Assembly (NCBI GenBank): GCA_045599445.1 | Contig: JAZRWB010000027.1 | Location: 1,344-65,343 of the forward strand | DNA: 64,000 nt | Direction: 5' to 3' | From: Kiritimatiellia bacterium | GTDB taxonomy: Bacteria; Verrucomicrobiota; Kiritimatiellia; RFP12; UBA1067 | In this document: positions 27,335 through 58,265 of the stretch, piece after piece | How positions within the stretch are numbered: position 1 is the first letter of the stretch | How the letters are laid out: each line of letters starts with the position of its first letter | Made by a program: the position numbers and the translations under genes | The notes under the pieces: generated by a model | The model's database searches: none | The model's input: the letters and a program-made list of their open reading frames with translations, nothing else | What the model was told of the DNA's origin: nothing

Positions 27335-30300
27335 TTACTTTTGGAATACCTTGATTTGATACATGGCTCCGGTCGCGTCCTCTTCCGCGAGCGGCATTTC
27401 GATTACCGCCTCGGTCTTGCCGAGCGTAATCGTGCCCTCCTTGGCGACGATCGGCTTCGCGGCGAGCGAAGTGTACTTCAAGATCCGGTATTCGACCGTG
27501 AGGTTTTCCACCGCCGGGAAGGTGTAGAAGACCGCGAGTTCCGAATCCGTCGCGGCCGACTCGACATCGGCCACAACCTTGAACTTCGCCTTGCCGTCCA
27601 CCACCTCGAAGTTGGCGATTGAAAGCGAGTGTTCGGCGATCTTGGCATCGGTCGTCGCCTTGATAATGGCGTCGTTCGGATCCTCGCCTTCCCCGACATC
27701 GAGATTCATCATCGCCGCCAGCAAGTTGGCGTTGCCGAGCGAGGTGCTCATCAGCGTGGCAAGGCCGCTCGCCGCTTCATTCTTCTTGCTCGTGTCGTCC
27801 AAAGTGCCGACCAAGTCCTTCATCGAGACATAGCTACCGGCGGTGCGCGGGTCGAGCTCGGCGGCGCCATTGGCGGTCAGGTTACCACTCTTCTTCCATT
27901 CCCAGGCATCGGGCAAACCATCCTGATCGGTGTCGCAATCGTCGATGTAGACGGTTACCAGATTATGCGTTCCGACCTTCGGCCCGACCTTGATCGACTT
28001 CGAGGTGTAGATTATGCCGTCGCGCTGATCACGAACGCAGGCATATCCCCAGCTTTCCCAATTGTCGCGCTTGCCGTTATTGTTGGTGTCGATGTAGGCC
28101 ATTACATAGTAGCTGCCCTCGGTAAGCCCGATGATCGAGGCGTTCTTGGCCGGCGCAGTCGTCGTGCTACTGACGCTATTCTTGTCCTCGGTCTTGACAT
28201 AACCCGCAGAGGCGGAAAGCCCGGAGAAGTCGGGCGTATCGAACGCCTCGACGCGAACGGTACCGCCAGTGAGAACGTCCGGGTGTCCGAAGTACTTGAC
28301 CGCGACTTCAATCGTGCCGTAATCGAGCTGATCCTCGGGAACGTTCATTCTGAAGGTCGCCGTCGCGCTCCACTTGGGCTGACGGAACTTCGCGTTGAGC
28401 GACGTGATCTTCCAGTTGTAAGTTTTGTCGTTGGCGAAGACCTTGCTGCCGGGAGTGATGTCGCCGACGCAAATCGGCGCAACCCAGGTGTAGTAGCCGT
28501 CGGCGCCTCTGGCCGGCATCAACTGAATGCCGCTATTCCAAACGAATCCATCATCGCCAGAAACCTCGATTTGGAACGCGGTATAGCTGTTGTAGCCGTT
28601 GTCGGTCCACTTGAAAACCGGACGCGCCGAATACACCACCCCGTCGCTCGTTCCGCCCGGCGCCACCGGCGTCGGAACCTTGCGCAAAGCGTAGCTATCG
28701 TAGCGACGAACGATGCTCTGCGCAAGAATCGTCGCGTTGGTGCTATTCGCGATATCGGTAATGCCAGTCTTTGTGCCATTGACGGAGTCGTCAATCTGCG
28801 CATTGCCCAATATAATGCTGAAGATCGCCTCCGCGGTGTCGGCGTTCGCCGCCCCTTCGGGGATTATACCCCAGCCAATATCGTAGATTCCTTTGTCCGG
28901 ATCCAATATATCGCCCTCGTGGAGGTAATCGCGCCCGGACTCGGAGAAGTCAATAACTTTGTCCATCACCTTGTAGCCGTTGATGTACACGTTTTCCGCC
29001 TCTTCGGCGCCGTTCATCTTCACCGCCGTCATATAGGCGCGAACCCAGTGGGTCGTGGCGTCGACCGCCGCGCCGCTCGACACGGAATCGATGACATCGC
29101 CGGTATCGGAACGAATGACCTGGCGATCGGTGAGGCCGGTCGTGGCCTGATAGCGCGCGAACACCGGGTTCGTATCGGTGAGCTCGATAGCGAGCTTGCC
29201 GTAGTTCCAGCCGACGTCCACGCCGTAGGCGATACCGAACGGTTCGCCCGGGTCGTACTTGCCGTTCGCCTGAATAGTGTCGGCGAAGACGATGAAGTTG
29301 TTCTTGCCCTCCCTGATGTGGCCGACGGAGTTGTTGGTCTCGCTACGCGGATCGGCGTCGCCGAGGTAATAGACCGCGGTCTTGCCCGCCGTCACCGGCT
29401 TCGACAACCAGGAGAAGCGCATGTAGCAGTTCGCATAGGTGTAGACCGACCAGCGGCTCGCGTCCGTGGGGTCGGCGAGATTGTACGCGAAGTCCATATA
29501 TTCCGGGAGCGCGGTAAAGTCGAGCGTAACCGCACCGGTCGCGTAATTGATTTCACCGAGCACGATGTCCCTGCCCGTTTCGTCCTTATGCCAGAGGACG
29601 ATGTCGCCCTTGCCCGAGCCGTCGTTGCGCATCTTGTCGTGCGCCGACTCTTCCCAAGTCGCGGTGTCGGCGCCGTAGATGTAGCCCTGGCCGGTGATGA
29701 TGTCGACCGCGACCCAACCCGGATCCTTGCACTCGAGTTTGAACGAGCCGGCGACCACGCTGCCGGGAGAGAGGTGGGTCATCACTTCTCTGCCAGGGTT
29801 CATCCCCACGAACTTGGTCTTCGCCATGCCGTTGGTGTTGGAGGTGGTCCTATTGTCATTGTCCGCATTCACCTCGCCAATCGTCCACTTCGCATCGGGA
29901 ATCGACTGGAAGGTGCGGCTCTTCTCGTCGGCGCAATTCCACGCCTGCACCACGATCGGGCAGTTGACGTTCTGCTCTCCGAGGTAGGTAATCGACGCCT
30001 CGATAATCGGCACGGGATACTGGGCGACCTCGATGCCGTCGATGGCGAGCGAGGCGTTTTTCGTCGGATCGGTGTCGGCCTGGAATTCCGCGTAGTTCGT
30101 CCACCCGTCGCCGTCGGCGTCCTTGTTGGCGTCGTAGACGTAGGGGCTGACTGCGGCGAGATTGCCGAATTTCACTTCCCAAGTATCGTCCATGTGGTCG
30201 TGATCGGTGAAGACGTCGGCGATATAGAGACGGCCGAGCTTCGCGTAGGCGTCGGGCACGTAGCCGTTGGTCTTGGGATTGATCGGATCGAAGGACGTTC

Positions 30301-33300
30301 CGGGAATCGTGTAAACCTCGTTAAGGAGGTACTCGACGTAGTTCGAAAGTCCGTCCTTATCGCTGTCGGTGTGGCCGTTTTGGCCCGAGATACCGTAGAT
30401 CTGCTCCCACCAATCGGGCAGTCCGTTGCCGTTGAAGTCCGCCTTATCGCGGAAGTCGGGGTTCTGCGTGCCGTCCGGCATAAGTCCGGCGACGAGATCG
30501 CGCATATACTCTTCGCCGGTCTTGCCGGGATACAGCGTTTCGTACCAGTCGGGAATGCCGTTGCCGTTAAGGTCGGCGCCGGTCTGCGTCCAGGCGGTCA
30601 TCGCGCCCTGGCCATCCCAATAATCGACGTCGCGTTTGGCCCAGGCGTCGCCCAACGGGACGAGATCGCTGTTGCCCACGAAGCCATAGCGCGCTTCGAA
30701 GCGAATCTTCATCACCGCCTCGTCGAAAGCCGGATACGCTCCCGCCAACTGCACGGTCTTGCGTAGACGCATCCCGAGCTCGTCGCCCAAGGCGCCGAAG
30801 CCGTAGGGGTTGCCGCCGTTGGGAATCGCATAACTGTCGAAACCGACGGTGGACGAAGGCGCGTAATTCGCGCGGTTCTCCGCCCAGAAGAGCGAGTCGG
30901 CGAACGAACCGTCGAACCGCTTCAGGTGCGTAACCGTATTTTCAATCCACGGCACAAGCCGATAATCGGTGTAAACCGCGCTCTTGACCGTGCCGTCGTT
31001 ATCCGCCCACCATTGCGGAATCTGATAGCCCTCGTTATCGCCATCGTTGACCTTCGGATCGACGCCGAAGTCGTTCGGGGTTTTTGCAACATCGCCCGCC
31101 GCGACCGCACCGGGCAACGACGAGAAGTTGTAATGCTGAATGAGTTGCGGCGGCAGAACTTGCTTGCCGGCGGTCGTGGCGTTGTCATTCCGCTCGCCGT
31201 TCTTCTGCCACGCGGCGTAGATTTCGTCGCGATTCGCGGCAACGTCCTCATCGGTGTACGCCTTGGTGTATTCGCTCTTAATCGCATCGCCCGCGCGAGC
31301 GCCGTCCCAAATGCGGACTTCGGAGACATAACCCGCGAAGAAGTCCTTGAGATACGTGCCGAGAGTTTCGACGACCGGGAACTCCATCGGATCGAGAATA
31401 TGCCGTGCGCCGATTACGAATGCGCCCGGGTTCGCCACGAACGAAGCCGAAGGATAGGAATTGGTGCTGGTCGGATCCTGCAGGAACGTGACGACGCCGT
31501 TCGCCGGCACCAACGAAGTCGCGGTTCGAACGGTTTCTTCGCCGTTGACGTAGAGGCAAAGTTCGACGCCATCGTAGGAGAGCGCAACATGCGACCACTG
31601 GTTAAGCGGCAACTCCGACGGAGATTCGATCGCACAGCCGGTGTTGACGCCGACGGTCCCGGACTCCACCGCCGCCGAGCTATCGAAAAGTCCGCGCACC
31701 TTGCCCTCGGCGGTAAGCTCGAGGCGGAAATTGGCACGCCAGTGCGTTTCGCCCTGAATGTCGCCCGCGGTCGCCGGATCGTACGTAGAGCCACGTTCGA
31801 GAATCGTGCCGCCCTTGGCCTCGGGCTTCACCCAGCACTCTACCGTGAACTGGCGGAACATATCGTACGAATTGTTGAATTCGACCGGAGTGCGCTGGTA
31901 AGCGGCGCCCGCGCCGTCGAAGTGAATCGCCGAACGATGGTAGGGATCGGAGCCAACGAGCGGATCGGTCGCACCAATCACGCCCTTGGTGACTTCAATC
32001 GAGTCGGTCGTCCAGTCGTTGTCGGTATCGAAGCCCTCGTTACGCTCGAACGAATAGGCGAACATGCCGTCATCGTCCGTAGTCGACGGAAGCCAACCAT
32101 ACGCGCCGAGACCGGCCAAATAGCCATAGCTCTGACGAGTAACGGAGAGTAACGCCGTCGGCTCGGTCATCCAAAGCGGCGAGGGGTCGGTGTGTTTGGT
32201 GGTCGGGCTGGTGAGGTTGCCGTTGATCGCTTCCTCGAAGTTGCGGAGCTTGTCGCCGTCGGGATCGCCAATCGGATCGCCGGCAAGCCACGGATACTTC
32301 TCGAAATCGAGCGAAGGCGCCGTATTGCCGAACTCGTTCCAAGCATTCATGTCGGCGCTGATCAGGCCGTAGGCGTCGGCGATGATATCGCTGCCCGAGC
32401 CGCCGTAAATTGGGTTAAGACCGTGATAGAGTTCCCAATAATCGTCCATGCCGTCGTCGTCGCTATCCCAACGACGCGGATCGGTCGACACGTAGGTAGC
32501 GGCTTCAATGCGTTTCTGGCCCAAATTCGCGGGGAATAGCGATTCGGTCACATAACGCATCAATGCCGTCGGCGGCAACATGATCTTGCCGAACATGTAG
32601 ATGTTGCACGGGTCCCAGACGTTCGGCGCCGGAGCCATGTAGCCGAGAGCCGCCCAGTCCCACTCCTCGCCGTTCGCGGCGTAGAGGTTCTGCGGATCGT
32701 TGTAGATGTTGACCATGCTGTTGGGCATCATTTCGTCGCCAAAGACCGCAAGCTTGTAGGCGTCGACATCGCAGTAGTCGAACTGCGGATATTCGTAACC
32801 CGCAACCCCTCCGGCGGCGTCTTTGCTCGCCCGCGGGCTTACTGCCACATCACCGGGCTCAATCTCTTCTTCCTCTTCCTCGGCGGCCGTCGGCATCGGG
32901 CCGATGGTCGGAAGCGCGTCCTCGTCGCCAAGCCACCAGACCACGCGACCGTTGAGCGGAGTTTCCGCGTCGTCGTAACGGAACGAACGCACCGCCTGCA
33001 CCAGATATTCCTGCCAGTTCTGCAGACCGTCGCCATCGAAGTCGTAGTCGCGGAAGGTGTGCGTACGACTGTCGATAATGCTACCCGTATAATCCGTGAA
33101 CGCATCAAGACCGTGGGTCGCGTCCATACCGCCGATAATGTAGTAGCCGTTGCCGTTGTCGCCGACGCCTTCATCATCCGCGCCTGTCGGTACCATCCGG
33201 GCGTTGAAAAGCCCGTCGGCGATTTTAAGCCGCTCGGTGTATTCCGCGGCGTTGTTGAACATCACATTGCCGGCGCCGTCCACCACAATGCCGGCGAACT

Positions 33301-36300
33301 GCATTTCCCAGGGATCGGGCAATCCGTCGAAATCGGTATCGACCGCGCAGGGGTTCATGCCGCCGCCGCGGAAGCAAATCGTCGATTGATCCGCCTCGGT
33401 GTCGTAGCTATTATCGTAATTGAAGGTGAACTTATGCAAAGTACCGTATGTCTCGCGACCATCGTAGAAAACATCCAACCATTGACCGCCTTCTTGCCCA
33501 GCCTGCATACCCTCTTCGATTCCGTCGCCGTCGGTATCGGCGTTATTCGGATCGGTCGGGAAGAACTTGTTGGGCCACACCGCGCCCTTGTTCGCGTAGA
33601 TCGACTCGCAATCCTTGTAGGCGATGGTCGAGTCGGTGCCGGCGAATTCGAGCGGCGAGCGCAAAGTATCGTCATCCGTGTCGGGGTTCGCATCCTGGGC
33701 GTTATTGGGGTCCAACCCGACGTAGAGTTCCCAGCCGTCCGGCACGCCGTCGCCGTCGGTATCCGCGCCGTGTCTCTCGTTCGCGTATTCCGACTCCATA
33801 TCGCCGTAGGTCTTCGAATACGGCTTGGACGGATTGGTGGTGTTCGCCTGGAACTTATCCATAATCTTGTCCTTGTCCGTGAACGCACCGGTCGCCTTGC
33901 GATACTTGAAGAGCAGGAACTCGTCAATCGTATAGTACGGCGTGGTATTCTCGGCCATTCCGGCGAGCCCGCCCTTGCTGTGCCACCGAACTCCCAGGCA
34001 TCCAACCGAGTCCGAATACCATGCAGTACGCGGATCGAAGCCGAGATAGGCGTAGACCTGGTCGTGAATAATCGTATAATCCGTAAAGAAGTCGATGTAA
34101 ACGGTCAAACTCGTGGCCGTTGCGGGAATCGACACCTTGGCGCACTGGAGAGCGCGCGTACGCGGAATCGTCTTCGCCGCGCCATTCACATTCATCGTAA
34201 AGAAGAGCTTGTCGCGATCACCGTCGCCGAGGTGGGCGCCGCGGAAGCTGCCCTTTGCCATGAGCGCGGCCTCGTTCCCGGCGAACGCCGCTATCGAGCG
34301 GTCGGGGCAGACATACACCTTATGGGTGTCTCCCTCGTCCCATTCGACGAACGCCGTCCCTAAGCCCGGAACCTTGATGCCATCAATATATTCGTACATT
34401 TCAAGCGTCGCCACGGCCATAAAGTCGCCGTCGGGATTGGTCAAGCTCGGCGAAACCTCTTCGTTGCTAAGCGGATTAAGTCCGCGCAGAACTTCCCAAC
34501 CGTCGGGCATACCGTCGCCGTCGGAATCGCAATTGATCGGATTGGTGCCAATCAGGAATTCCTCGAAGTCGGTAAGTCCGTCGTTATCGAAGTCGCGACT
34601 GCGGAGCGTACCGCGCGTCGCCTCGTTACCCTCGGCCACGCCAGGCACGGTCGGATTGAAGGCAAGCGCGACATCTGCGGCAGGAATTTCCTCCTTTTCG
34701 ACATCGTCCTCGTTGAACTTATAACCCTTCATCAATTCCTGCCACTTGCCCTCGCCATTGGGATAACCGACCGTCGCACCGTACCAGAACCAGTATTCGT
34801 AACCGTCGGGAAGTCCGTCCTTATCCGTATCCGCCTCAATTGGGCTAGTCGGGTTTTCCGGCGTCCACTTGCACCTATTCTCGTCCTTCCAGAACGCGGT
34901 CAGCGCATTCGCCTGCTCCTCGTTAAGCGCCGCCAAGGCCTTCATATCCTCGGTGGCCACCGGAACTTTCAACGACTCGTCTTCCTTGGCTTCCGTCTCG
35001 TTATAGTACGTCCGGAAGGCCATCTCCTCGTAAATCGTAAAGTCGCGATCGGGGAGCGATTCGTCAGCGTTGGGATAACGGGCGTTGAGGCCTTCGCCGA
35101 AGCCGCGAATTTCGAGGAATGCGTTGAACGCGCCGCCCACGGTCTCCCAGTTATTGGAAACGTTGGGGACGAGCGAATTGCCGCTCGAGCTCTTGCCGGG
35201 CAAAAAGTCCTCGTCGTCATTATACGCCGAAACGTCCGCAAGGTCGTCGCCGGTTACCTTATTCTTATCGGCGATGCCGAAGCCGTATTCCACGACGGCA
35301 AGGTCGGGGATACCGTCTTGGTTGATATCGCCGCAGTTATCGGCCACGCGATATTCTTTGGAGAAAATCGCCTCCATAGTCGTCGCCTCGTAGCCGAGAT
35401 CGTCCTGCCCCTTCTCGGTCGGCAAATAGACCGGCGAGGGCGTTGGCGTTTCTCCGGCCTTTTCCGGCGAAAGGCCACCGTAAATTGCGCTCTCTACACC
35501 ACTATCGCTCTTCGTCGCCCTAAGCCAGGCGTAGAAATACGAGTCCTTGTCGCCAGGATAGCTATAGGCGGTCTCGGATTCTCCCTTTTCCGAACCCTTA
35601 TCGTTCAACGCAATCTCGTATTTATCATCCTGCTTACTACTTGTGTGTCCCTTCTTGTAGCCGACGGCCACTACTTCGGCAAGTTCCTTCGACCCCATGT
35701 TCCATTGCAATTCAAAGGATCTCACCCTATCAAGCGAACCATCCGCCCACACATAACCCTCGCCAAGCCCCTTCGCGGTATTATAGTACTTCGAAAGCGA
35801 GGAAGTGGCGATTCCCGCAGAAGGCCCGTGCGCTATTGTAGTCAGCGACTTGGTGGCCGCGACCGTAACGTACCATGTCTGCTCGTAGTAGCCGTTGCGC
35901 ACGCCGTCAACCGTCTCGTCATCCTTGTCCTTGACGGTAAGCACAATATCCACGACGCCCGGGGAATCGTACGTCGGGGTGAAGGTTTGAGTAGTTTTGT
36001 CCATTACCTTTGCGCCGGCCGTTGATTGTACCTTGCCATTAACCGACCAAGTATACTCAAGCCCCGTCGACAAATCGTCCGCCGCCTCCTGGGTAACATT
36101 CCAAGTAATGGACGTCGGCGCCTTGGGCGCGGCGTTGGTCGCCGAAGTGTACGCTCCGAGCGACGCCGGCGAAATGACGATTACCGGCGCCACGTTGTTG
36201 ATGTACACCGTGGCTTCAGCGCTCGCGTAGTAGTCCGACCACTTCTTATCATCGGAATTCTTATTTTCGGCCTCGGTCTTATTGGGGTCGTCAACCACCT

Positions 36301-39448: not shown

Positions 39449-39460
39449 AATACGTATCCT

Positions 39461-39838: not shown

Positions 39839-39842
39839 TGCT

Positions 39843-42800: not shown

Positions 42801-45800
42801 CATCACTCCGACTACGTCGTGCATGCCGAGGTAGTGCGAGCAGACGCCGTTCTTCGGCAAATCCGCAAACACGAATTCGGCGACGTTGGTCCAGTTAACG
42901 CTATTCGCGCTCTCCTTCGTAAGCGACGGGAGGTTCAGCGCTTGCACATTGTTGGTAGCGACTTGCAAGATCAACTTGGCGTTGACATTGGCGTTGGTAT
43001 ACGCGAAAGCGAACATCCCGAGACCCTTGCCGCGCGGGATTTTCGTAGGACTGCCCTCGAATCCGTCCATTAAGGGCGAGCGAATCGACGCGACCGCGTT
43101 TTTGGTCGCGGTGCGCATCGGCGAAAGCTCGATACTACGAGTGGAATTGCCGCTTTCGTCGGTCGCCTCGTGCACCCATGCCGAAGTGAAGACGAAATTC
43201 GTAGGCGAGCCGTCGTCCGCCGCCTTGAATGAACTGTCCTCGGTGTAGTCCTCGCCCAACCACTGGGTAAACTCCACATCGTCCAACACGACGTCCGTCT
43301 TGGCGTCGTCGATGGAGCCGCCGTGCGACAGCCGCAACGCCGCATTCTGACGAATGTAAAGCGGAACCGTTATCCGCTTCGACTTGACGAACGTGGAGAC
43401 TTCGACATTGGTAATCGTCGTCCACTCCGAACGATCGACTGGCGACCACTGCACCGAAATCGGCTGCGGAATGCAATCGGCGGTAATGCCCCAATTGCGA
43501 TCTACGTCGTTGACGTGGTAGCAGCCGTCGGCAAGCGCCCAATATCCGGCGATTAAGTTGTCCTTCTCCGATTTCGACGAGCCGTTGAAGGTTACCGCCG
43601 CGTCGTCGTGCGCGGAGAAGTGGTTCTTCCCCAACGAGGGATTGAGCCAGGTAACCGAAGAGTTGTACACGCGCGGCGATTTGAAAATCGCCGGGCAATT
43701 CGCCGAAGCGACGCCGAAAGTTCCCTTGCCGAGCGGATTGTCGCCGTCCCAATAGCAAACGTTGATCCAGTTTCCGTCCGGCACCGAATCGACGGAGAAC
43801 GCTTGACGACCTCTCGAAACGCCGGCCTGAATCTTCACGCTGCCGTCGCTTTGGCGATCGACGGAGATGTACATCGCGGCGTACTGATTGTCGTATTTCT
43901 TGAACGGTACGTTGGTACTGTAGGCGAACGACAGCTCCCGCGCGCCATTGGACAGCGAAATCGCCTTGCAAGTGCCGTTCTTGTAGACCCACTTGAACAG
44001 TTCGTAGGCGATGGTGTTGTCGCGACGACGGGTGATGCGAAATTCGTAGCATCCGGTAACCGGGCGGTAGTTCGCAACCACCGAAAGCTGCCCCGCGCCG
44101 TCGAAATCGTCCTTGTTCACGCTGCTCTTCCAATCGAAATCGGACATCGCCATTTGGGTAACGAAGGTGTATTTCGTCTGCTCGGTATAGTTCGGGGCGT
44201 AGTCGTAGGCGATGTTGTTGAATAGAATCGACTGCGCGACTCGCGCGGCAAACGAAACCTCGCCCAATCCACGCGGCGAAACCGCCGCCGTGCGGAACTC
44301 CAGCGACCCCTTGCCCTGGCCGTCCATCTGGAAAGCCATGCCGGTGTCCTTGAACTTTTCGTGCACCCACATACCCTGATTCGCCGTCCAGCCGTTCGGC
44401 GTTCGCGCGGTAATGAACGGCTCGTATCCCGGCCAACCGACATCCCCGATTTCTTCGGCGAAGCTTTCGCGCCAGTAGTCGCTATCCGCGACGCAAGGAA
44501 TGCGGGCGGAGAATTCGTCTTCGAACGATTTCATGCCGTGCGACACGCCGCTACGCCCCTCGGTTTCGGAGTGGCCCACGAATATCTCCTCTTGCTTGTT
44601 CGCGTCGTTCCAACCGTTGAAGTTCTGGTAATCGGCGCGGGTGACGGTAAGCGACTTGCCCTCTTCGTCGACGATGAACAGCAAATGTCCCGTTGCCGCG
44701 GTACACTCCACCTTCGACCATTCGGTAACCCCTCCGGGGACGAGCGGCGCGCTCTTTACGGCCACCAAATCCGGCAAATCGTAATCCGCCTTCCAGCGAT
44801 AGGCCTCGAAGTCCGCGATTTCCGGATTCCACCTGACCGCCTCCAAGCGAAACTCCAAACCCTCCGCAATCTGCTCGGTAGTCCGCACATAACCGCGCCA
44901 TTGATGATCGTTGGCTACCGCCAACTCCGTAGTCGTCTCCGGAGAACCCTCGCCCTTGCGAGTCAATACCCTAATCCACTCGTAGTCGCTCTTGCCCTCG
45001 CGCAGCCGCACGAACCAATCCGTTCCCTTGGTCGGATAGACGTTTTCGGCTACTTCCGCGCGATTGGTGACCGCGCCGATCTCCTCGGTGTAGTCGGAAA
45101 AGCCGAGATTAAGGCCGGTGTAATCGACGTAGTTATAATATGGCGCTTGAATGTCGGCGGAGAAATAGAACTCCACGTCGCCGACCTCGTTCGGCAACGC
45201 CAGCGGCTCGGTCGACTTGAAGTCGTCGTCGGGATTCAGGAACACCGTCTGCCAATCATTCGTCGCCTGATTCAAATAGCGCCAGCGGTAATGCATCCGG
45301 GCGGTGGAAACAAACGCGCTTACATCGGCACTGATGCCGCCGGCGGTGTGGTAAACGGGTTTCGCCTTCGCGATAATCTCGTCGGTCGCCGCCGGATATT
45401 GCGGGATAAAGGAACCCGCGTAGCCGAGAATGGACTTGCCGCTACGAGTGTAGTCAAACTCGCCGGTCGGCTTCAACTCCACGCCCATCGCCGGATAGGA
45501 AGCGAGAACGTTGTCGAGGAGAATCAGCGCCTTGCCGTCGGGATTGGCCGCGCGTTCCGCGTCGATGGAAACGCGACGAATGCGGAAACGCGCCTTCCCG
45601 TACTCGCCGACGGGAACGTAAACGCGATAAAAGTTCTTCATCGTGCCGCCATTGGTGATGTCGAGATCAAGAATTTCCCTTTCCGGCAATTCTTCGTCGA
45701 TCTTCCCGTCCACAATCCTCACCGGTCGCATCTTAAGGGGCTGCCAAAGGTCTGACTCGTCCGTCACAAATTCGGCTTCGCTGCCGAGCACCGCTTCGAC

Positions 45801-48245
45801 TACGATTTGATAACTATTGGTATCGTCGAACTCGGGGTTCGTCCAACCGTTCACCGCATCGAAATAGATGGTGCCGAGGCCGTTGGTATAGCAAGGCGAG
45901 GTAATCGAAGCGTCCAGAACGTTGCGCATCACGATCTGGCCGACGTCGCGCCGACGCACGGCACGCGTCGAGTGTTCGCTGATTCTAAGCGAATTTTCCG
46001 CGTCGTAGGGAAGGTAGTTCTGGTCGATGGCGAGCGGCGCCGTGTCGCTGTCGCGCGGGAAGGTGTTGCCATGGCGAATGTCCTTAAGCCGCCAAAGTTC
46101 TCGCCTTTTTCCATCGCCATCGTAGGCGTAAAGCGTCGAATTCGCGCCCGGGCGCAAGTTATAGAGCGAAATCGCCTCGTCGGGATTGTCGTGGTGCCAA
46201 TAGGTCGGCGTTTCTTTCTTCGCGCCCGCATTGTCCGCATCGTACCAACCCTGATAGTTGATCGCCGGAGCGGAACGCGAACCCTCGCGGCAATCGTTGT
46301 TCATAAGGAGCGCTCGCCCTTCCGCGCTCGAACCGAGCGAGGTATAGGCGGTGTGGCCGATGACGTTAATTTCTATGGTATGAACAAGTTGCTCATACTC
46401 ATCAGTCGCTTCTGGAACAAACGCCGCGATATAAGTACCGGCGCGAGTCATTTGACGATAATCAGTAAAATGCACGTCGGGGGTAGTGGCGTAATAGAAG
46501 TAGTACTTTACATCGCCCTCGGCGAGGCGACCTTTATTAATGTTCAACGATGACGGCGGTGACTGAAGTTCCCAACGAACCCGGTCTATCGTTGGAGATT
46601 CAACAAAATAGTTGACCTTTAGCCGATTCCGCGTTACCAGCGAGAATTCGACTTCGGTCGGATCCCCAACCTCGCCAAGCTTGGTCGGCGGCGGGGTTTT
46701 GCCGTCATCCGATTTCCAGTAAATCGTAATTACATCGCCCGCCTTCGCGCCGGGAGCGGAAAGCTTAATCGTCGAAACACCCTCGACATTCCACGACTCG
46801 ATTTCGTAGTCGAGCATTTGCCCGCTTGCGTCGAGCACAAAAAATCCGTCCTTGGCGCGAACGTGATTAAAGCCGAGCGGATTATTCTCGGCGAGAGTGA
46901 ACTTAAATAGTTCGCCAACGCCCTCCGGCAAGGTTATCGTCACACAGTCGGAGAAATTCTTCGCACTCGCGTCATCCCAAAGATAGAAGTCCGCTACCGC
47001 TTCGGCGCCCTCCCAATTGTTGCCCTCGGGTATCGTCGCCTTCACAAACCAAAGACCTGCGGACTCGGGCTCTTCCCGCGACCAATTCTCCTTGTCCTTG
47101 GAGTAGGTGTAAGTAACGGAAAATCCCTCGCCCTTGGGCCAAAGCGGCCTACAAGTTGGGCTATTGGCTTCTTCGCCAATCTTCCAACCCTTGAGGACCA
47201 AGTTATCAATCCGGTTCTTCGCCTTCTTGATTTCCCACTTAACCGTATCGTCCGTATCCGTGCCGTCCGTCCACTTGAAGCCCGGCTTCAGTGTCGCGGT
47301 CGTAGTGTAGGAACCGACACCGATTTCGTTCCTACCGCCCGAAATCTCATAACCGTCGGAGGGCTGAATCGCGTTTTGCGACTCGCCGTTATAGTAATAG
47401 CCGTCCTCAGGTTGGAGCGTGCTCGGACGATCGAGCGGTTCGCCCACGACTGCGCTCAAACGGATAATGACGACGCCGTTGCCGCCCTTGCCGTATGTGT
47501 TGGCGTTAGATCCGCCGCCGCCGCCCGAACCTCTGACGCCATCAGTCGCCGGATTCTGTCCATTGGGACCAAACGCACCATTGCCGCCGATTCCACTACC
47601 GCCCAAACCACGGTTATTGCCGACGAGCACCGCGCCGCCGCCGCCCGCCGCATAGTAAAGCGTCTCGCCCGTAATATCGCATTCCTTGCCGCTACCGCCC
47701 GCGCCGCCGAAAACGAGAGCATCATAATCCGTATTTGGCCCTCCGCCCTTGCTACCAGCTCCGCCATCACCGCCATTACCGAACGTATCGCCGCCCGCGC
47801 CGCCCGCGACGACGCAAATTTCCGTTTCGCCGAGCTTAACCGAGGATTCACCGCCCGCCGCTCCGGCAGCCGTTCCACCCGCACCAAGCACGATTGCATA
47901 AGTACCGCCATTAAGCGCAACATTTTTATCAACGAACTTACCACCCGCGCCGCCGCCACCACCGACGTTCTTCGCCTTGGTCTCCTCATCACTCGTCGCC
48001 GAGCCCGCGCCGCCGCCGCCGACCGCGAGAATGCGCCCAACCGCCGAACCGGGCAAGGTCAAACTGCCGACCGCATTGGTATAGACGAAAACGATATCAC
48101 CCTCGCCTTCCGCTCCCGACGGCCAAAGCACTTTCGCGTCCGTGTATTCAAGCGTCACGCCCTGAAACTCCACGCTTTCCGCACTCGCCGTCCACACGGC
48201 GAGGAAAGCCAAAAGCGCAAATATTCCTCTAAAATACCTATTCAA
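39843..48245 (-). CDS. Giant secreted protein (2800 aa) with an N-terminal glycine-rich module
   Basis: TTG start at 48245 overlaps the upstream gene by 8 nt. Signal peptide (M)NRYFRGIFALLAFLAVWTASA. The glycine-rich region (~47450-48020) reads ILAVGGGGAGS...GGGGGAGGKFVDKNVALNGGTYAIVLGAGG...ICVVAGGAGGD...YYAAGGGGAV...GSGGGGGS...GKGGNGVVIIRL. An MBG-like segment follows (YYYNGESQNAIQPSDGYEISGG...GSYTTTATL). About 2400 residues remain unassigned. Confidence 0.8.
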   Translation of the reverse strand: MNRYFRGIFALLAFLAVWTASAESVEFQGVTLEYTDAKVLWPSGAEGEGDIVFVYTNAVGSLTLPGSAVGRILAVGGGGAGSATSDEETKAKNVGGGGGAGGKFVDKNVALNGGTYAIVLGAGGTAAGAAGGESSVKLGETEICVVAGGAGGDTFGNGGDGGAGSKGGGPNTDYDALVFGGAGGSGKECDITGETLYYAAGGGGAVLVGNNRGLGGSGIGGNGAFGPNGQNPATDGVRGSGGGGGSNANTYGKGGNGVVIIRLSAVVGEPLDRPSTLQPEDGYYYNGESQNAIQPSDGYEISGGRNEIGVGSYTTTATLKPGFKWTDGTDTDDTVKWEIKKAKNRIDNLVLKGWKIGEEANSPTCRPLWPKGEGFSVTYTYSKDKENWSREEPESAGLWFVKATIPEGNNWEGAEAVADFYLWDDASAKNFSDCVTITLPEGVGELFKFTLAENNPLGFNHVRAKDGFFVLDASGQMLDYEIESWNVEGVSTIKLSAPGAKAGDVITIYWKSDDGKTPPPTKLGEVGDPTEVEFSLVTRNRLKVNYFVESPTIDRVRWELQSPPSSLNINKGRLAEGDVKYYFYYATTPDVHFTDYRQMTRAGTYIAAFVPEATDEYEQLVHTIEINVIGHTAYTSLGSSAEGRALLMNNDCREGSRSAPAINYQGWYDADNAGAKKETPTYWHHDNPDEAISLYNLRPGANSTLYAYDGDGKRRELWRLKDIRHGNTFPRDSDTAPLAIDQNYLPYDAENSLRISEHSTRAVRRRDVGQIVMRNVLDASITSPCYTNGLGTIYFDAVNGWTNPEFDDTNSYQIVVEAVLGSEAEFVTDESDLWQPLKMRPVRIVDGKIDEELPEREILDLDITNGGTMKNFYRVYVPVGEYGKARFRIRRVSIDAERAANPDGKALILLDNVLASYPAMGVELKPTGEFDYTRSGKSILGYAGSFIPQYPAATDEIIAKAKPVYHTAGGISADVSAFVSTARMHYRWRYLNQATNDWQTVFLNPDDDFKSTEPLALPNEVGDVEFYFSADIQAPYYNYVDYTGLNLGFSDYTEEIGAVTNRAEVAENVYPTKGTDWFVRLREGKSDYEWIRVLTRKGEGSPETTTELAVANDHQWRGYVRTTEQIAEGLEFRLEAVRWNPEIADFEAYRWKADYDLPDLVAVKSAPLVPGGVTEWSKVECTAATGHLLFIVDEEGKSLTVTRADYQNFNGWNDANKQEEIFVGHSETEGRSGVSHGMKSFEDEFSARIPCVADSDYWRESFAEEIGDVGWPGYEPFITARTPNGWTANQGMWVHEKFKDTGMAFQMDGQGKGSLEFRTAAVSPRGLGEVSFAARVAQSILFNNIAYDYAPNYTEQTKYTFVTQMAMSDFDWKSSVNKDDFDGAGQLSVVANYRPVTGCYEFRITRRRDNTIAYELFKWVYKNGTCKAISLSNGARELSFAYSTNVPFKKYDNQYAAMYISVDRQSDGSVKIQAGVSRGRQAFSVDSVPDGNWINVCYWDGDNPLGKGTFGVASANCPAIFKSPRVYNSSVTWLNPSLGKNHFSAHDDAAVTFNGSSKSEKDNLIAGYWALADGCYHVNDVDRNWGITADCIPQPISVQWSPVDRSEWTTITNVEVSTFVKSKRITVPLYIRQNAALRLSHGGSIDDAKTDVVLDDVEFTQWLGEDYTEDSSFKAADDGSPTNFVFTSAWVHEATDESGNSTRSIELSPMRTATKNAVASIRSPLMDGFEGSPTKIPRGKGLGMFAFAYTNANVNAKLILQVATNNVQALNLPSLTKESANSVNWTNVAEFVFADLPKNGVCSHYLGMHDVVGVMRLVVAPETIAAANEMTEFDPEFGQVFITRVFCRDEPAVDTSCWWGWNLRTSADLRSEGDAKLMYLSDFAAGGGSLGDSGMSVALNNSVYSDTIYEEEAAYKEHQPFVQTPTFSDAEVGEVSFKARRYDVTKGETARITVYGAANGALGDDSQWEYVTHFDITDNLYHTYTYRTDPNQNYRSLRFMVVGVKDAKEIGDADDPRPDSPVRVAFDEVMVCEAVRPTLAFREIFAFRSDLDGLNYSDKYDHPEEQPLFGECWGVQTEVYAAQLPDEVDFKRGVKVKLYWYDGVEPWGFDNWRAKAKSAYLTECEDKPLFFRSSYSGDPESVVRPNERQEEGLPVQYMLEAEYYTKESDSVVRTLLKKGNWIKPRWYAGVDYNEQFRSYGSFAAYTILDSVSPGWAWINEVNIFGGYQNWNNKDQDYQFVEVAIPREASIADWKVQFISQHGITNTACRFVKLADPSKSLAAGQAPASKSTHEDSSCVFLSVAGPKSKTSILESGYDVDGVWNLVENDLTFTRDQRIAADDQPLAIRLVRKSGVIEHEIVLEGTNIFTGTSYEYDYSAERAVKLLNEAEAEGKWFDAGDDSLDGDHSLSVLAANGGVAANWSNTPKRTPGFKNEGQTIDPNHPTPIGSTILVYARLDQDPGHFTQSDGTSESTVETLMMVVPRNSETGTNIVYRVEPWYELDSVIANGVPLELPAMRRGTVKVPVGRNASGDVTVVAKTRFDSRLDEYVEPDDPYRPAIVDWLNRGTNAYGDKFETDDEDSRIYIAELIRKKDDSKCRDLTLTEMYWLDINPFQAGWALKAGFAKCPFPIPVGEVDDDPIGDVLTNVSFSVYMCITNRSEKAAPRAPYVLRSLDPGKTSWDYIAGEISVWTSVTFKATGYLANGLPYNIGSIPLRWFVFDEGSFYPAGHEKEFQSMIEIIDPYSRYSPGWSENWGVWRGKAPVWHGFNINTKLGPYGIGTLKPENPVYVPENSEKSDKSE

Positions 48246-50616
48246 AGCGTAGTTCCAATCTGAAGAAGTTGTAGCCGTTCTCGGTCTTTATTGGCTCGGC
48301 GCAATCGGTCCAACGATCGGTAAGTTGCGCCTTGCCTTGGACGTGCAAGCCCCCGTTGAAATCCCACTCGGGCTTGCCGATTGTAATTACCCCAGTCGTC
48401 GAATCGACGGCAATCGAAGTAATCTTAAGCTCGCCCGTAAAGCCATTCAGGAGATATTCGCGGTTAAAGCCCGCGTCGTTCAATTTCGCCGGCAAATATC
48501 CCTTACCCTGCGCCCAAGTCGCAATTGCCTTGAAACGCGTATCGTTTGCAATCGCCTCGGGATTATCGGTAATCCCCAGTAGCTCCGCAAGCTCCGAAGC
48601 CGAACGCGGCGAATCTTTCGCGTTCGTTGCGCTAATCGTCGCACTCGCCGTCTCCACGCCGGCGTTTACGATGAAGGAAAGCCCGTCAGGCGTAATCCCA
48701 TCGCTTTCCGAAATCGCCGCGTCGATATACCACGGTGCAAGCGTCGGTTCGATCGTGTAGGTCGTTTCGAACTCAACTTCGACCGGATCCGTGGTAAGTG
48801 GGCTACCGTTCATCGTCGCCGACTCAATGCCCTCGCCGAAAGTAGCGGTGAAGTTCACCGAGGATGGCGGAATGTATTCAATCGTCGTCCAATAACCGCT
48901 CTGAATTTCAACCGATCGATCGTCCGCGAGATTATCCGCGTAGCTGAACGCGCCCGATGTCGTGTTTTCCGGATCCTTGAACCGCCCGTTGACTATCAAC
49001 AAGGCCTCGCTTGCACCGAACTTATCGGTAAGTACCGTCTCAATCGTAACGCCTTGATCAGCTTCAAGATTACCAATCGTTACCGCACCCGAGATGTTGA
49101 AAAGCCCTTCCGCGTCGCCGACGAGCTTGCCGCCGCGAGCCGTATCAATCAAGGTAAAGCCCTTGCACTCCGCGTTGATCGTAAAGAGCACGCCCGAAAT
49201 ACCTTCCTTGGTAATCGTATGACCCTTAAGATCAAGCGTAATCGCCGGCATATCGCCACCGATAAGATATCCCTCTTCCATGCCTATTTCCAACTCCGTC
49301 GAGAAGTCGTCGGCAAGCTCGATCGTAATCGGGTCGCTGCCGAGATCGTCGGCGAAAACCTCCGAAAGTAGCGAATAGCTCTTCCCCCCGACCGTAAAGC
49401 GGGTTGCCGCCTTGGGCTTCACGACGATGGTGCAAACCGCATTCGCCGCGGTAATCGTAAAGGTGTTGTCTTCGAGCGTCGCACCGCCCTCGGTCGTCCA
49501 CGTACCCGCTTCATAGCCCGCGGCGTTGTAGGTAACCTCGGTAATCTTCGCCGTATCGCTCGCGCCGGTAAAAGCGATTTCCTTGGCGCCTCCCTCGATC
49601 GAAACCGCCTCGCCGTTTAACTTAAAGCCGGTAACCCCTTCCGTCCACTTCAAGGTCCACATTCCACCTTGCGCGAACGCGGGACCCGAAGCGTAATCGA
49701 CGATCGACAAGTCGTCGACCTTGCCCAAACCGCTGAAGCCCGCGGTCATTATCCGTTGCGCATCCGCAGCCCCATCGGGAATCATGCTGAGGAAAAGGCG
49801 CTTCTCATCGAAAAACTCCTTCGCCGTCGGCTTCAACTTGGTAGCGACACCGCCGCCAAAGGCGCTGGTGTAGTTGTCATCCTCGCAAATCAACGGCTTG
49901 CCGTCGAGAAATAGGATAAATGCGGCGATTTGCGACTCGTCGGTCGTAATGGAGTCGATTGCCCGAACGGTGAGGCGGTGCCATTCCGCCGGGTTCAACA
50001 CAAGCTTCTCGCCCTCGGCGAGCGCAAGCGTGAAATTAGCCGGCGAAACCGCCAACGACGACTTGTTAATACTCCCCGCCGTAACGTAAAGATTGGTCGT
50101 CGCATCGGTCGCCTTGCCATCGGTTCCCTGCCAGACGAACAACTTGGCGCGCGGAGCTTCAACCTCCGGAATGTCCAGGCCCTCAATCGGCTCAAACTGC
50201 ATCAAAGTATCGATAATAATCCCGTCTTCAATGGCGACGCTCCGCTCGTCATCCGTCAGCGGATCGGGCGGAAAACCACCGTTCGGCATAGCGGAACGGT
50301 AGAGAGAAAATAGCGACGAATCGGCGAGTAGGTATTTGGTGTTGTTGCCGTCCGGGACCAACTTCTCTCCTTCGGTGTATGGGTATTTTTCACCTTGCGT
50401 CGCGTAGGCGCAAAACGTACCGGTCTGAACCCGATAATTCGAGCACCAGCGATACGGCGTATAGGGCGCTCCCGTGTCATCGGCCTCGACGTTCAAGCTT
50501 TCGCCGACTTGCAATCCATTCGCCTCGAAATCGATAATATTGAAAAGCCGCGCCTCCGCCCTCGCACCAAGCACGACGGCAAATACCGACAATAATGTCA
50601 ATATCTTTAACTTCAC
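48238..50616 (-). CDS. Secreted protein (792 aa), unknown family, first gene of the giant-protein unit
   Basis: GTG start at 50616. Signal peptide (M)KLKILTLLSVFAVVLGARA. I recognise no motif. Confidence 0.75.
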   Translation of the reverse strand: MKLKILTLLSVFAVVLGARAEARLFNIIDFEANGLQVGESLNVEADDTGAPYTPYRWCSNYRVQTGTFCAYATQGEKYPYTEGEKLVPDGNNTKYLLADSSLFSLYRSAMPNGGFPPDPLTDDERSVAIEDGIIIDTLMQFEPIEGLDIPEVEAPRAKLFVWQGTDGKATDATTNLYVTAGSINKSSLAVSPANFTLALAEGEKLVLNPAEWHRLTVRAIDSITTDESQIAAFILFLDGKPLICEDDNYTSAFGGGVATKLKPTAKEFFDEKRLFLSMIPDGAADAQRIMTAGFSGLGKVDDLSIVDYASGPAFAQGGMWTLKWTEGVTGFKLNGEAVSIEGGAKEIAFTGASDTAKITEVTYNAAGYEAGTWTTEGGATLEDNTFTITAANAVCTIVVKPKAATRFTVGGKSYSLLSEVFADDLGSDPITIELADDFSTELEIGMEEGYLIGGDMPAITLDLKGHTITKEGISGVLFTINAECKGFTLIDTARGGKLVGDAEGLFNISGAVTIGNLEADQGVTIETVLTDKFGASEALLIVNGRFKDPENTTSGAFSYADNLADDRSVEIQSGYWTTIEYIPPSSVNFTATFGEGIESATMNGSPLTTDPVEVEFETTYTIEPTLAPWYIDAAISESDGITPDGLSFIVNAGVETASATISATNAKDSPRSASELAELLGITDNPEAIANDTRFKAIATWAQGKGYLPAKLNDAGFNREYLLNGFTGELKITSIAVDSTTGVITIGKPEWDFNGGLHVQGKAQLTDRWTDCAEPIKTENGYNFFRLELRFE

Positions 50617-50637
50617 GATACTATCCCAACTTTGGAA

Positions 50638-50646
50638 ATTATACCA
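50638..50646 (-). promoter_or_regulatory. Extended -10 box TGGTATAAT for the giant-protein unit
   Basis: The minus strand reads TGGTATAAT (50646..50638), 21 nt upstream of GTG 50616 and just downstream of the triple hairpin repeat. Confidence 0.6.
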
Positions 50647-50691
50647 AAGTCAGTCGCCCGAGGCAATGGGAAAATTGAGGTGCAGTTGGGC

Positions 50692-51830: not shown

Positions 51831-51843
51831 TTTCCGGCTCCCG

Positions 51844-56271: not shown

Positions 56272-56274
56272 CGC

Positions 56275-58252: not shown

Positions 58253-58265
58253 GGCATCCTCCGAA

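Follow-up and report, generated by a model that had tools for sequence, protein, structure and literature searches.

A conserved four-gene cassette for predicted giant secreted proteins beside a PilM-secretin cluster in Kiritimatiellia

The four genes A, B, C and D described here appear, as judged from sequence, to be a conserved, lineage-restricted and uncharacterised module carried by uncultured gut and rumen Kiritimatiellia. The reading which we prefer, and which on balance seems probable to us, is that the module builds a very large, calcium-binding structure with a binding function on or outside the cell. The order A-like, B, C, D is repeated in at least seven other contigs; the loci L001, L002, L009, L010, L011 and L098 keep it, L005 and L006 keep part of it, and every cassette found is present in a single copy per contig at a fixed place beside core genes. 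The window, i.e. the whole stretch of 64,000 nucleotides that was analysed, is from a Kiritimatiellia MAG.

The genes and their promoter

All four genes are co-directional and located on the minus strand. Gene A (48238..50616, GTG start) codes for a secreted protein of 792 aa, gene B (39843..48245, TTG start) for a secreted, non-repetitive, all-beta giant of 2800 aa, gene C (39461..39838) for a lipoprotein of 125 aa and gene D (27335..39448) for a secreted giant of 4037 aa. A, B and D have signals of the signal-peptidase-I type (that of A ends ARA/EA), and C has a lipobox with an invariant cysteine. The Sec and lipoprotein signals quoted in the original prediction are all present, and the N-terminal signals are the only hydrophobic segments in A-D, with no further membrane segments.

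The junctions A/B, B/C and C/D, taken straight from the sequence, are -8 nt (if the TTG start of B is accepted), +4 nt and +12 nt, exactly as first reported. The database copy of B is 2784 aa, 16 aa shorter than the 2800-aa call, and in our reading most of the signal peptide would be lost with this later start. The length of the ORFs and the existence of about 85 and 83 homologues, respectively, show that B and D are real genes. The box proposed as the start of the unit turned out to be an extended -10 (TTGCCT, a 17-nt spacer and TG-n-TATAAT at 50666..50638 on the minus strand), and it is the sole minus-strand promoter-like site within 38-52 kb. L001 and L002 have kept its -10 box, the 5'UTR (GTTGGGATAGTA) and the DNA coding for the signal peptide. 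A putative promoter of its own and the conservation in other genomes both support the proposal that A-D form one unit.

Domain content of the proteins

Most residues were said to be unassignable, and more than 90% of those in A-D are indeed without a Pfam or NCBIfam match. These databases give no enzyme domain in A-D, and no pilus-related domain or fold (including PilY1, vWA and prepilin domains) was found in A, B and D. The three modules that had been recognized by eye are all found as Pfam domains, Gly_rich_2 in B and Laminin_G_3 and TSP3_bac in D; being of adhesin, lectin or matrix type they support the adhesin- or matrix-type character suggested for the proteins.

Gene B has about 85 full-length relatives (2934-4282 aa, 29-64% identity), is conserved evenly over its entire length and contains no internal repeats. 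The order predicted from models and profiles is signal peptide, glycine-rich domain of phage-tail type, Ig-like modules, LamG domain and then a series of unlike lectin/CBM-like jelly-rolls. The glycine-rich domain (residues 71-262, 47460..48035 on the minus strand) matches PF21722 Gly_rich_2 with 28.6 bits against a cut-off of 24.3, is shared by all 14 members of the family that were compared, with a best E of 3.7e-58, and has an AF2 model with a pLDDT of 81.6. Among its matches are phage tail proteins annotated as "glycine-rich domain", with E down to 4.8e-13, and the tail tip of Bxb1 (9d93_Pa, prob 0.99). It also matches 65 viral predicted structures at E <= 1e-3; of the 50 listed among these 65, the majority carry names of glycine-rich tail or fibre proteins. 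The viral matches could mean that B is left over from a prophage or a tailocin-like device, since this N-terminal domain also occurs in phage tail proteins. We find such an origin hardly credible, and it is largely refuted by the absence of phage structural, integrase and lysis genes from the window and from any cassette locus, by the small share of the domain (about 200 of the 2800 residues), and by the Sec signal, the lipoprotein partner and the fixed chromosomal position throughout the clade.

The LamG or concanavalin-A-like domain of B (residues 451-675, 46221..46895 on the minus strand) is assigned from tile profiles, which align with residues 2525-2740 of D, its LamG domain, at E 2e-9; members of the B family match PF13385 and PF10102. 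The jelly-roll string (residues 676-1720, 43086..46220 on the minus strand) consists of distinct beta modules and is all-beta in the AF2 model (pLDDT 74), for which Foldseek ranks reelin repeats, the meprin MAM domain, legume lectins and CBM35/51/4 highest (E 1e-4 to 8e-2). The structure models span residues 1-1720, and in this part AlphaFold gives neither an enzyme fold nor a pilus fold.

Gene D has co-linear relatives of up to 6576 aa. Its N-terminal 1200 aa have only 83 relatives among 1.84 billion representatives, nearly all of which align starting at their own N-terminus. The Laminin_G_3 domain (PF13385, residues 2529-2645, 31514..31864 on the minus strand) has an E of 4.6e-14 and 53.3 bits against a cut-off of 27.6, and the TSP3 region (residues 1540-3850, 27899..34831 on the minus strand) matches PF18884 TSP3_bac with 45.4 bits against 25. 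The motifs (DxDxDGxxDxxE) are scattered over this region as single calcium loops amid otherwise unassigned modules and not arranged in tandem. The original count of at least 15 stands if N is allowed for D, while the strict pattern gives 12.

The Ig-like arrays of B resemble cadherins and the S-layer assembly domain of Bacillus anthracis Sap, which is the best match (E 1e-6), with archaeal S-layers as weaker matches. This brings in the alternative that the cassette makes a structural envelope coat, S-layer-like or a matrix scaffold with C as membrane anchor, and not a ligand-binding adhesin. The even conservation of B from end to end, the scattered calcium motifs of D and the single, fixed position beside core genes are consistent with a coat. 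The S-layer matches, however, are produced by Ig-like arrays of a generic kind (TM-scores 0.14-0.16), and D diverges fast, being about 30% identical where ackA is 78-90% identical. The GC3 of the cassette is below that of the adjacent housekeeping genes, which argues against very high expression if a high GC3 is assumed to be expression-linked codon bias. The lectin- and CBM-like modules and the phage receptor-binding-type domain point to ligand binding. We consider a coat improbable and retain the reading of a binding structure.

Gene A gives no significant Pfam, NCBIfam or PDB sequence match. A word search finds 8 relatives; in L009, L010 and L098 gene B is preceded by an A-like gene (619-1001 aa), and in L005 and L006 an A-like gene is followed by a B-like one. 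One relative of A has a divergent InlB B-repeat (PF18998). C is rich in Lys and Glu and sits between B and D in every complete cassette, and in 7 homologues the lipobox Cys22 is invariant and an R..D..Y...L motif is conserved.

The neighbourhood of the cassette

A nine-gene pseudopilin operon had been described ahead of the unit, and it is there (50898..59477 on the minus strand), with eight genes carrying prepilin motifs and a GspK-like gene of 984 aa (51844-54798, minus strand); the gap to A is 281 nt. From this pairing it was suggested that the giants may depend on a type-IV-filament-like machine (T2SS/T4P). They would then be exported by a pseudopilus through the Amuc_1098-like secretin, or sit on a pseudopilin fibre as its adhesive part. 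We regard this dependence as unlikely. The pseudopilin half of the argument found no support in the survey of neighbourhoods, because the presence of the operon beside the cassette is not conserved. No prepilin-motif gene is present upstream of the cassette in nine loci (L002, L005-L011 and L098), where the upstream DNA inspected measured 1.4-10 kb and six loci had all 10 kb. The neighbours are gmk/yqeY in L002, dnaA/gidA in L098, toxin-antitoxin and ATPase genes in L005-L010 and glycosyltransferases in L011. In L001 an orthologous pseudopilin operon is found upstream, as in the window, displaced by five unrelated genes lying between it and the cassette. Genes for a GspE/PilB ATPase, a GspF/PilC platform and a prepilin peptidase are absent from the window, and known T2SS substrates are far smaller than the 300-440 kDa of the giants. 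On the other hand, prepilin-motif genes are rare (two other loci in 1.2 Mb of related DNA), which speaks against setting the upstream operon aside as just one among numerous dispersed copies. L097 has a homologue of the first pseudopilin, 42.5% identical, directly before kpsF-Amuc_1102-PilM, an arrangement which links pseudopilins to the PilM-secretin cluster.

The GC3 of the cassette (0.66-0.74) is like that of the pseudopilin operon (0.64-0.75), whereas the housekeeping genes and the PilM-secretin cluster have higher values (0.78-0.85), an observation which counts against the preferred reading.

On the downstream side the PilM-secretin cluster begins 3.2 kb after D, in agreement with the 3 kb first given. 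The first reading did not mention the content of this interval or the likeness of the cluster to Akkermansia Amuc_1102-1098. The interval is filled by ackA (26187-27329, starting 5 nt past the stop codon of D), pta (25153-26190) and kpsF (24170-25156), followed by the Amuc_1102-like (23454-24152), PilM/Amuc_1101-like (21831-23435), Amuc_1100-like (20896-21834) and Amuc_1099-like (19805-20899) genes and the Amuc_1098-like secretin gene (16663-19761), all on the minus strand; ackA and pta were assigned with Pfam, the others with Pfam/NCBIfam. Every intergenic gap from A through the secretin is at most about 45 nt, and a search from 50666 to 19812 gave no promoter-like or terminator-like site. 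In the metagenome loci the order D, ackA, pta, kpsF, the Amuc_1102-1098-like PilM-secretin cluster, coaE and rho is conserved. The distance between the end of a giant ORF and ackA is 5-87 nt in all of the 29 metagenome loci, and L012, L013 and L014 show the same arrangement. The D-like gene lies about 3-4 kb upstream of the PilM-secretin cluster in 29 of 29 metagenome loci and in L012 and L013, counting contigs which reach far enough; homologues of the giants are thus not usually without secretin genes, as the cluster is present in every contig long enough. The two stay paired even where identity is down to 59-60% for ackA and 47-50% for PilM. Such a pairing outlasts the usual unselected gene order and is counted against the preferred reading.

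These downstream observations favour dependence on a filament machine, as does the combination of Sec signals with the lack of any autotransporter, T1SS, T9SS or PEP-CTERM feature in the cassette proteins. Proteins with Sec signals but no known outer-membrane export domain need an exit, and the secretin is the only local candidate, which also weighs against the preferred reading. The downstream block, however, includes ackA, pta, kpsF, coaE and rho, and the conserved position can therefore not be read as shared function. Proteobacterial pilMNOPQ operons retain housekeeping neighbours (for example aroK-aroB) with which no functional link is known.

Comparison with known systems

The statement that no characterised system has this pairing needs correcting, since PilY1, SslE and the giant genes of Omnitrophota are precedents, and as such they speak for the filament machine. 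Among the three, proteins of giant size are found in Omnitrophota only, where the observation is purely genomic.

The giant adhesins of the LapA/BapA/SiiE type have tandem repeats, no Sec signal and type I secretion. The cassette proteins are like them, and like lectin/Ig-like proteins of gut anaerobes, in being very large, secreted and all-beta with calcium motifs, modules of the Ig-like or lectin-like kind and presumably a role in binding. They differ from LapA/BapA/SiiE in having cleavable Sec signals, no internal repeats and no RTX/T1SS features, and in belonging to a fixed four-gene set which includes a small lipoprotein.

PulA is encoded with the pul T2SS genes. SslE/YghJ is encoded beside the T2SS-beta that secretes it (PMC3707838). 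Both resemble the cassette proteins as large Sec-dependent exports, some of them lipoproteins, beside secretin and pseudopilin genes. All of gspC-M is present in their loci, and the secreted proteins are enzymes with a length of about 1100-1500 aa, whereas the cassette has no ATPase/platform genes nearby, its proteins are up to 3 times larger, and there is no enzyme fold in residues 1-1720 of B and no enzyme domain in A-D.

The tip adhesins PilY1/PilC of type IVa pili are about 1000-1500 aa, have a C-terminal beta-propeller domain and are encoded within a minor-pilin operon (PMC7541494). As a large Sec-exported, calcium-dependent adhesin beside minor pilins, PilY1 is the nearest characterised case of the proposed pairing; in contrast, A, B and D have no beta-propeller domain and a promoter of their own, and pseudopilins are not conserved neighbours.

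In Omnitrophota the giant genes are preceded by a conserved secretion locus with T2SS/T4P-like genes and a Rotamase_2 isomerase, and the giants are >30,000 aa with numerous transmembrane regions besides a divergent SecA DEAD domain (West-Roberts et al., bioRxiv 10.1101/2023.11.21.568195). The phylum is treated with the PVC clades, as is Kiritimatiellia, and the likeness extends to very long genes, attachment and carbohydrate-binding modules visible only by structure prediction, secretin/pilin-type genes nearby and a Rotamase-type isomerase nearby, likewise in L001. The cassette proteins, in contrast, are 0.8-4 thousand aa with a signal peptide only, the pseudopilin operon ahead of them lacks conservation, and the pilus-type cluster that is conserved is downstream, past three housekeeping genes.

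In the passages considered, the paper on Akkermansia muciniphila describes Amuc_1098-1102 as a five-gene pili-like cluster and mentions no giant genes beside it (PMC5332112). The same five genes in the same order are found downstream of the cassette, the 1099-like one with a TSP3 repeat; the Amuc_1099 family model alone passes its cut-off and the other four score under theirs, which makes the downstream cluster a distant relative.

A model for the cassette

The position of the cassette between the pseudopilin operon and the PilM-secretin cluster would reflect gene order and not mechanism, since the upstream neighbour varies and the downstream side is a packed block running through housekeeping genes to rho. 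In the reading of a large binding structure the proteins encoded by A-D would cross the inner membrane via Sec, and the lipoprotein C may tether or chaperone B and/or D at a membrane. Calcium would stiffen D, and the assembly may bind glycans, particles or other cells.

Genes, signals and promoter of the cassette

Almost all genes of the window (G+C 57.5%) are located on the minus strand, among them the four co-directional genes of the cassette. The four reading frames are as the original prediction had described them: A (48238-50616 (-), 792 aa), B (39843-48245 (-), 2800 aa), the small lipoprotein gene C (39461-39838 (-), 125 aa) and D (27335-39448 (-), 4037 aa). The genes of the large proteins span 2.4-12.1 kb and the whole cassette about 23 kb. 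Read from the sequence, the A-B, B-C and C-D junctions are -8, +4 and +12 nt, and all four products carry the Sec or lipoprotein signals predicted for them; the classical signal peptides of A, B and D end in ARA, ASA and AKA, and C has a lipobox. A scan for hydrophobic segments in A-D found none beyond the N-terminal one of each protein. The promoter box predicted upstream of A was located as TTGCCT-17-TGgTATAAT at 50666..50638 (-), which is the sole minus-strand promoter-like match within 38-52 kb.

The promoter, the 5'UTR and the signal-peptide DNA of A are kept in L001 and L002, the corresponding loci of two other Kiritimatiellia MAGs. A DNA comparison (window 50560-50670; L001 9940-10060; L002 9940-10060) found near-identity of the three genomes over the -10 box, the 5'UTR (GTTGGGATAGTA) and the initial ~60 nt of the A reading frame, despite A proteins that are only 51-57% identical and a G+C of 47.5% in L002 versus 57.5% in the window. 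A regulatory leader, or some restriction on how translation starts, may lie behind this near-identity. The stretch from the pseudopilin operon to the A promoter holds three head-to-tail copies (50693-50754 (-)) of a 23-nt unit with the palindrome CCCCTCCCGAGGGG. The unit occurs nowhere else in the window, where chance alone would give 0.06 copies, and the corresponding DNA of L001 and L002 lacks it.

In the region 14702-50616 the GC3 of the housekeeping genes and of the PilM-secretin cluster is 0.78-0.85, and that of the giant cassette and the pseudopilin operon is 0.64-0.75. By GC3 the cassette falls together with the pseudopilin operon, a resemblance that allows no firm interpretation. The window holds a further giant secreted protein (974-7477 (-), 2167 aa) with a low GC3 of 0.58, for which there was no Pfam match and, by BLAST, no relation to A, B or D.

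Conservation of the cassette

The order A-B-C-D is identical in the two MAGs represented by L001/L004 and L002/L003. In four more related loci (L009, L010, L011 and L098) a B of 3341-3477 aa is directly followed by a C of 131-151 aa and then by a D of 4129-6576 aa. An A-like gene (619-1001 aa) lies upstream of B in L009, L010 and L098, separated from it by toxin-antitoxin genes in L010, and none was detected in L011. The loci L005 and L006, which were found through their A-like genes, have a B-like gene downstream.

A word search gave only eight relatives of A. For B there are about 85 relatives of full length (2934-4282 aa, 29-64% identity), and its conservation is even along the whole length. 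Homologues of C have in common the invariant lipobox cysteine and an R..D..Y...L motif. For the first 1200 aa of D an exhaustive search of 1.84 billion representative proteins found 83 relatives, nearly all of which align from their own N-terminus and of which the full-length ones have 3370-6429 aa; a search with the C-terminal 1438 aa gave only 11 shorter proteins, apparently fragments. Judged by record titles, the relatives belong to Kiritimatiellia of rumen and gut origin. The shared gene order and the small family sizes argue that these are genuine families, inherited together and limited to a narrow lineage, and no prior description of the A-B-C-D cassette was found in the literature.

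Two loci lack a B gene upstream of D. In L012 (2236-18635) a C-like lipoprotein gene and D follow unrelated genes, and in L014 (6930-12821) a 1963-aa D-like gene is preceded by genes on the opposite strand. C-D, or D alone, may therefore be an older core joined to ackA.

Domains and predicted folds

The domains named in the original prediction were all recovered by Pfam at scores above the gathering cut-off. In B, residues 71-262 match Gly_rich_2 (PF21722; 28.6 bits against 24.3), which was detected in 14 of 14 members of the B family with a best E of 3.7e-58; no literature mention of PF21722 was found. In D, residues 2529-2645 match Laminin_G_3 (PF13385; 53.3 bits against 27.6), and the bacterial TSP3 repeat TSP3_bac (PF18884) is matched at 45.4 bits against 25. 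The TSP3-type motifs stand singly, spread across D residues 1540-3850. The predicted count of at least 15 calcium motifs is reached when N is allowed for D in DxDxDGxxDxxE (15 relaxed); the strict count is 12. NCBIfam adds TSP3-motif-level matches only. Profile comparison relates a LamG domain at B 451-675 to D 2525-2740; apart from this pair, BLAST and tile profiles found no modules common to A, B and D and no internal repeats in any of them. Two assignments made by eye were given up: a LamG-like N-terminus of A, for which hhalign against all B tiles gave nothing, and a lamin-tail domain at B ~2210-2330, where Pfam found no LTD.

Relaxed Pfam scans of 14 relatives of B and eight of A added just DUF2341/LamG matches and one InlB B-repeat. 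PDB searches with the sequences of A, B and D and with the A and B family profiles returned low-complexity glycine stretches (e.g., SUZ12) or marginal matches, such as TcA (E 0.1) and a pappalysin LamG domain (E 0.019). The AlphaFold model of B 676-1720 is all-beta (pLDDT 74), and its best structural matches, with weak scores, are reelin repeats, the meprin MAM domain, legume lectins and CBM35/51/4, which are jelly-roll binding modules; no enzyme fold was among them.

In the model of B 1-680 (pLDDT 81.6) the glycine-rich domain resembles tail and fibre proteins that bear the name "glycine-rich domain" in tailed phages (E down to 4.8e-13; identity 22-28%), and a further match is the tail tip of mycobacteriophage Bxb1. 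This likeness is what would speak for B being a phage remnant. A prophage or tailocin origin of B was rejected since phage genes are absent at every locus, and we consider a remnant of this kind very improbable. The Ig-like modules which follow the glycine-rich domain match best the Sap S-layer assembly domain and then cadherins. The cassette might from this be taken for a structural coat; yet the modelled resemblance to S-layer proteins is confined to a generic Sap-type fold (E 1e-6, TM 0.14-0.16), and such a coat seems to us an unlikely function. By its predicted folds, the composition of B is that of an extracellular binding or scaffold protein. The domain and structure searches thus bear out the adhesin- or matrix-type character originally proposed, with Gly_rich_2, LamG, TSP3 and binding-type folds in the modelled part of B, and returned nothing pilus-specific.

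The upstream side

The nine-gene operon upstream of the cassette (50898-59477 (-)) consists, as predicted, of eight genes with a prepilin motif and one for a GspK-like protein of 984 aa; it stops 281 nt before A. The GspK-like protein (51844-54798 (-)) is about three times the usual size of GspK, its match to the GspK model is limited to the N-terminal 60 residues, and its L001 orthologue is 35% identical.

The original prediction rested much of its argument on the adjacency of this operon to the giant genes, and here the neighbourhood survey goes against it. No prepilin-motif gene was found upstream of the cassette in the fetched DNA of L002, L005-L011 and L098, which covered the full 10 kb at L002, L005, L008-L010 and L098, about 8.5 kb before B at L011, 3.0 kb at L006 and 1.4 kb at L007. 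The upstream neighbours of other cassettes are instead gmk and yqeY, dnaA and gidA, glycosyltransferases, toxin-antitoxin genes and ATPases. L001 does hold orthologous GspK-like and last pseudopilin genes (35-38% identity), displaced from A by five unrelated genes (6.5 kb), one of which encodes a PpiC/Rotamase_2-type rotamase lipoprotein (L001 3468-4448). The adjacency in the window is therefore lineage-specific. The idea that it is trivial because pseudopilin genes are ubiquitous was dropped, as the prepilin motif occurs in just two other places in 1.2 Mb of related loci, a sample which is biased towards one genomic region.

Directly upstream of the pseudopilin operon lies a DUF4143/AAA ATPase gene (59523-60698; G+C 0.45, GC3 0.44). 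Distantly similar ATPase genes are found in L005 (3244-8329), L006 (1099-2427), L008 (16938-18263) and L010 (1016-2344); two of these match the window gene weakly by BLAST, and one is DUF4143 by Pfam. Such ATPase genes, together with PIN and AbiEii toxin-antitoxin genes, recur beside A-like genes in several rumen loci, which may point to mobile or defence-type elements inserted at the cassette's 5' border.

The downstream side

The start of the fermentation gene ackA lies 5 nt past the stop codon of D (27329-27337), pta overlaps ackA, and next comes a kpsF-type sugar isomerase gene, followed by the PilM-secretin cluster (16663-24152 (-)), coaE and rho. The five genes past kpsF are distant counterparts, in the same order, of Amuc_1102, 1101 (PilM-like), 1100, 1099 and 1098 (secretin) of Akkermansia muciniphila, which are described as a "pili-like" cluster (PMC5332112). 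The NCBIfam equivalog model for Amuc_1099 is passed (90.5, cut-off 50); the others score under their cut-offs (1101, 382.6 versus 650; 1098, 428 versus 750; 1100, 42.5 versus 180; 1102, 21.5 versus 55).

The intergenic gaps between A and coaE measure about 45 nt at most, and simple scans found neither a minus-strand promoter-like site between 50666 and 19812 nor a terminator-like site after D. These absences are compatible with long read-through transcription, for which they are weak evidence.

The downstream order was read in metagenome loci, of which a scan with a PilM profile returned 80, and in L012-L014; the cassette ends of L001, L002, L009-L011 and L098 are outside this count. In L012 and L013 the D-like gene precedes ackA, pta, kpsF, the Amuc_1102-like gene and PilM, to which L012 adds Amuc_1100- and Amuc_1099-like genes, and in L014 it is followed by ackA. 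Every metagenome locus long enough has the window order from D through rho. In all 29 of those with at least 1.5 kb upstream of ackA (among L019-L094), an ORF of at least 978-2013 aa, running off the start of the locus, ends 5-87 nt before ackA; gaps this short suggest either read-through from giant gene D into ackA-pta or a start of ackA-pta within D. The order from D to the PilM cluster is kept in L012, L013 and the metagenome loci despite considerable divergence (ackA only 59-60% and PilM 47-50% identical between L012/L013 and the window), so the association is real and old. The survey thus divides the two neighbours that the original prediction had joined to the giant genes: the secretin cluster stays near D-like genes and the pseudopilin operon does not. 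On the secretin side the loci thus do not show what was named beforehand as refuting the prediction, homologues that mostly lack such neighbours.

It should be noted that ackA, pta, kpsF, coaE and rho, genes for which no part in a pilus machine is plausible, are conserved in just the same way, and that housekeeping genes are retained beside pilMNOPQ operons in other phyla. A single locus, L097, departs from the order: there a homologue (141-1295, 42.5% identity) of the window's 403-aa first pseudopilin stands directly before kpsF-Amuc_1102-PilM, with no pta, ackA or D/giant gene between the pseudopilin and kpsF. This arrangement ties the pseudopilins to the PilM cluster and indicates that the cluster can exist without the cassette alongside.

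Comparison with known systems

The original prediction knew of no system in which giant secreted proteins are paired with pilin-type genes; precedents do exist. PilY1 is paired with minor pilins (PMC7541494), SslE lies beside T2SS-beta (PMC3707838), and the giant genes of Omnitrophota are preceded by T2SS/T4P-like loci and have a Rotamase_2 isomerase as a conserved neighbour (bioRxiv 10.1101/2023.11.21.568195), which the rotamase lipoprotein of L001 parallels.

Unlike PilY1/PilC, the proteins A, B and D have no Neisseria_PilC or T4P_PilY1 match (Pfam, NCBIfam, E <= 0.01), and the C-terminal beta-propeller of PilY1/PilC has no counterpart in the modelled part of B. PilY1/PilC is also co-inherited with a minor-pilin operon, whereas the cassette has its own conserved promoter and, at nine loci, no prepilin-motif gene in the 1.4-10 kb of upstream DNA fetched. 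The Omnitrophota genes are over about 30 kb and encode many transmembrane regions and a divergent SecA DEAD domain (bioRxiv 10.1101/2023.11.21.568195); the cassette genes are far shorter, with no membrane segment past the signal peptide and no SecA match (Pfam). The T1SS adhesins LapA, BapA and SiiE have tandem Ig- or cadherin-like repeats and a C-terminal T1SS signal and lack a Sec signal, in contrast to the non-repetitive, Sec-signalled cassette proteins, which have no RTX/T1SS matches; T5SS and T9SS domains were likewise absent (Pfam, NCBIfam). Like T2SS substrates of the PulA/SslE type, A-D carry a Sec or lipoprotein signal at the N-terminus and are free of further export domains. The PulA/SslE loci, however, have a complete gsp set, whereas GspE/F/C/L/M and a prepilin peptidase are missing from the window, which offers pseudopilins, a GspK-like protein, PilM and a secretin. 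The cassette would encode giant secreted binding proteins, and these are without the defining features of the PilY1, T2SS-substrate or Omnitrophota cases.

Possible function of the cassette

Most likely, and by our estimate with slightly better than even chances, the cassette encodes a calcium-binding structure of very large size with glycans, particles or cells as its targets, and its position is a feature of a highly syntenic chromosome region. A-B-C-D would be expressed from their own promoter and exported by Sec, lipoprotein C could serve as a tether or a helper in assembly, and the assembled structure would then bind its targets.

That the giant proteins depend on a T2SS/T4P-like machine, as originally proposed, gains from the fact that they need a route across the outer membrane, for which the secretin is the sole nearby candidate. 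Weighed with the incomplete gsp set and the housekeeping genes sharing the conserved order, we regard such dependence as possible but doubtful. In a more specific version the PVC-specific Amuc_1098-1102-like machine would have A-B-C-D as its dedicated load. Pseudopilins would drive giant lectin-like fibres through its secretin or attach them to it, and the cassette would have remained joined to the cluster, with ackA-pta-kpsF trapped between, as both are made together. This we hold to be somewhat less probable still.

Kiritimatiellia are common and almost uncultured in rumen and gut communities. At ~23 kb, with its order conserved across a clade and invisible to domain databases, the cassette probably encodes a main surface structure of these cells, and it bears on how they attach to or capture substrates. 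The products of the Akkermansia Amuc_1098-1102 cluster are abundant envelope proteins, including the much-studied Amuc_1100, and the fixed position of the cassette beside the counterpart of this cluster makes it a concrete and testable candidate for the cargo that a machine of this kind could take. Should the link be one of position alone, the cassette represents a new family of non-repetitive giant surface proteins and warns against inferring function from neighbouring genes where a lineage is highly syntenic. The importance would climb sharply with proof of a link to the Amuc_1098-1102-like machine: were A-B-C-D its load, they would form a type-IV-filament-dependent giant surface fibre and provide a first function for the pili-like cluster of Akkermansia.
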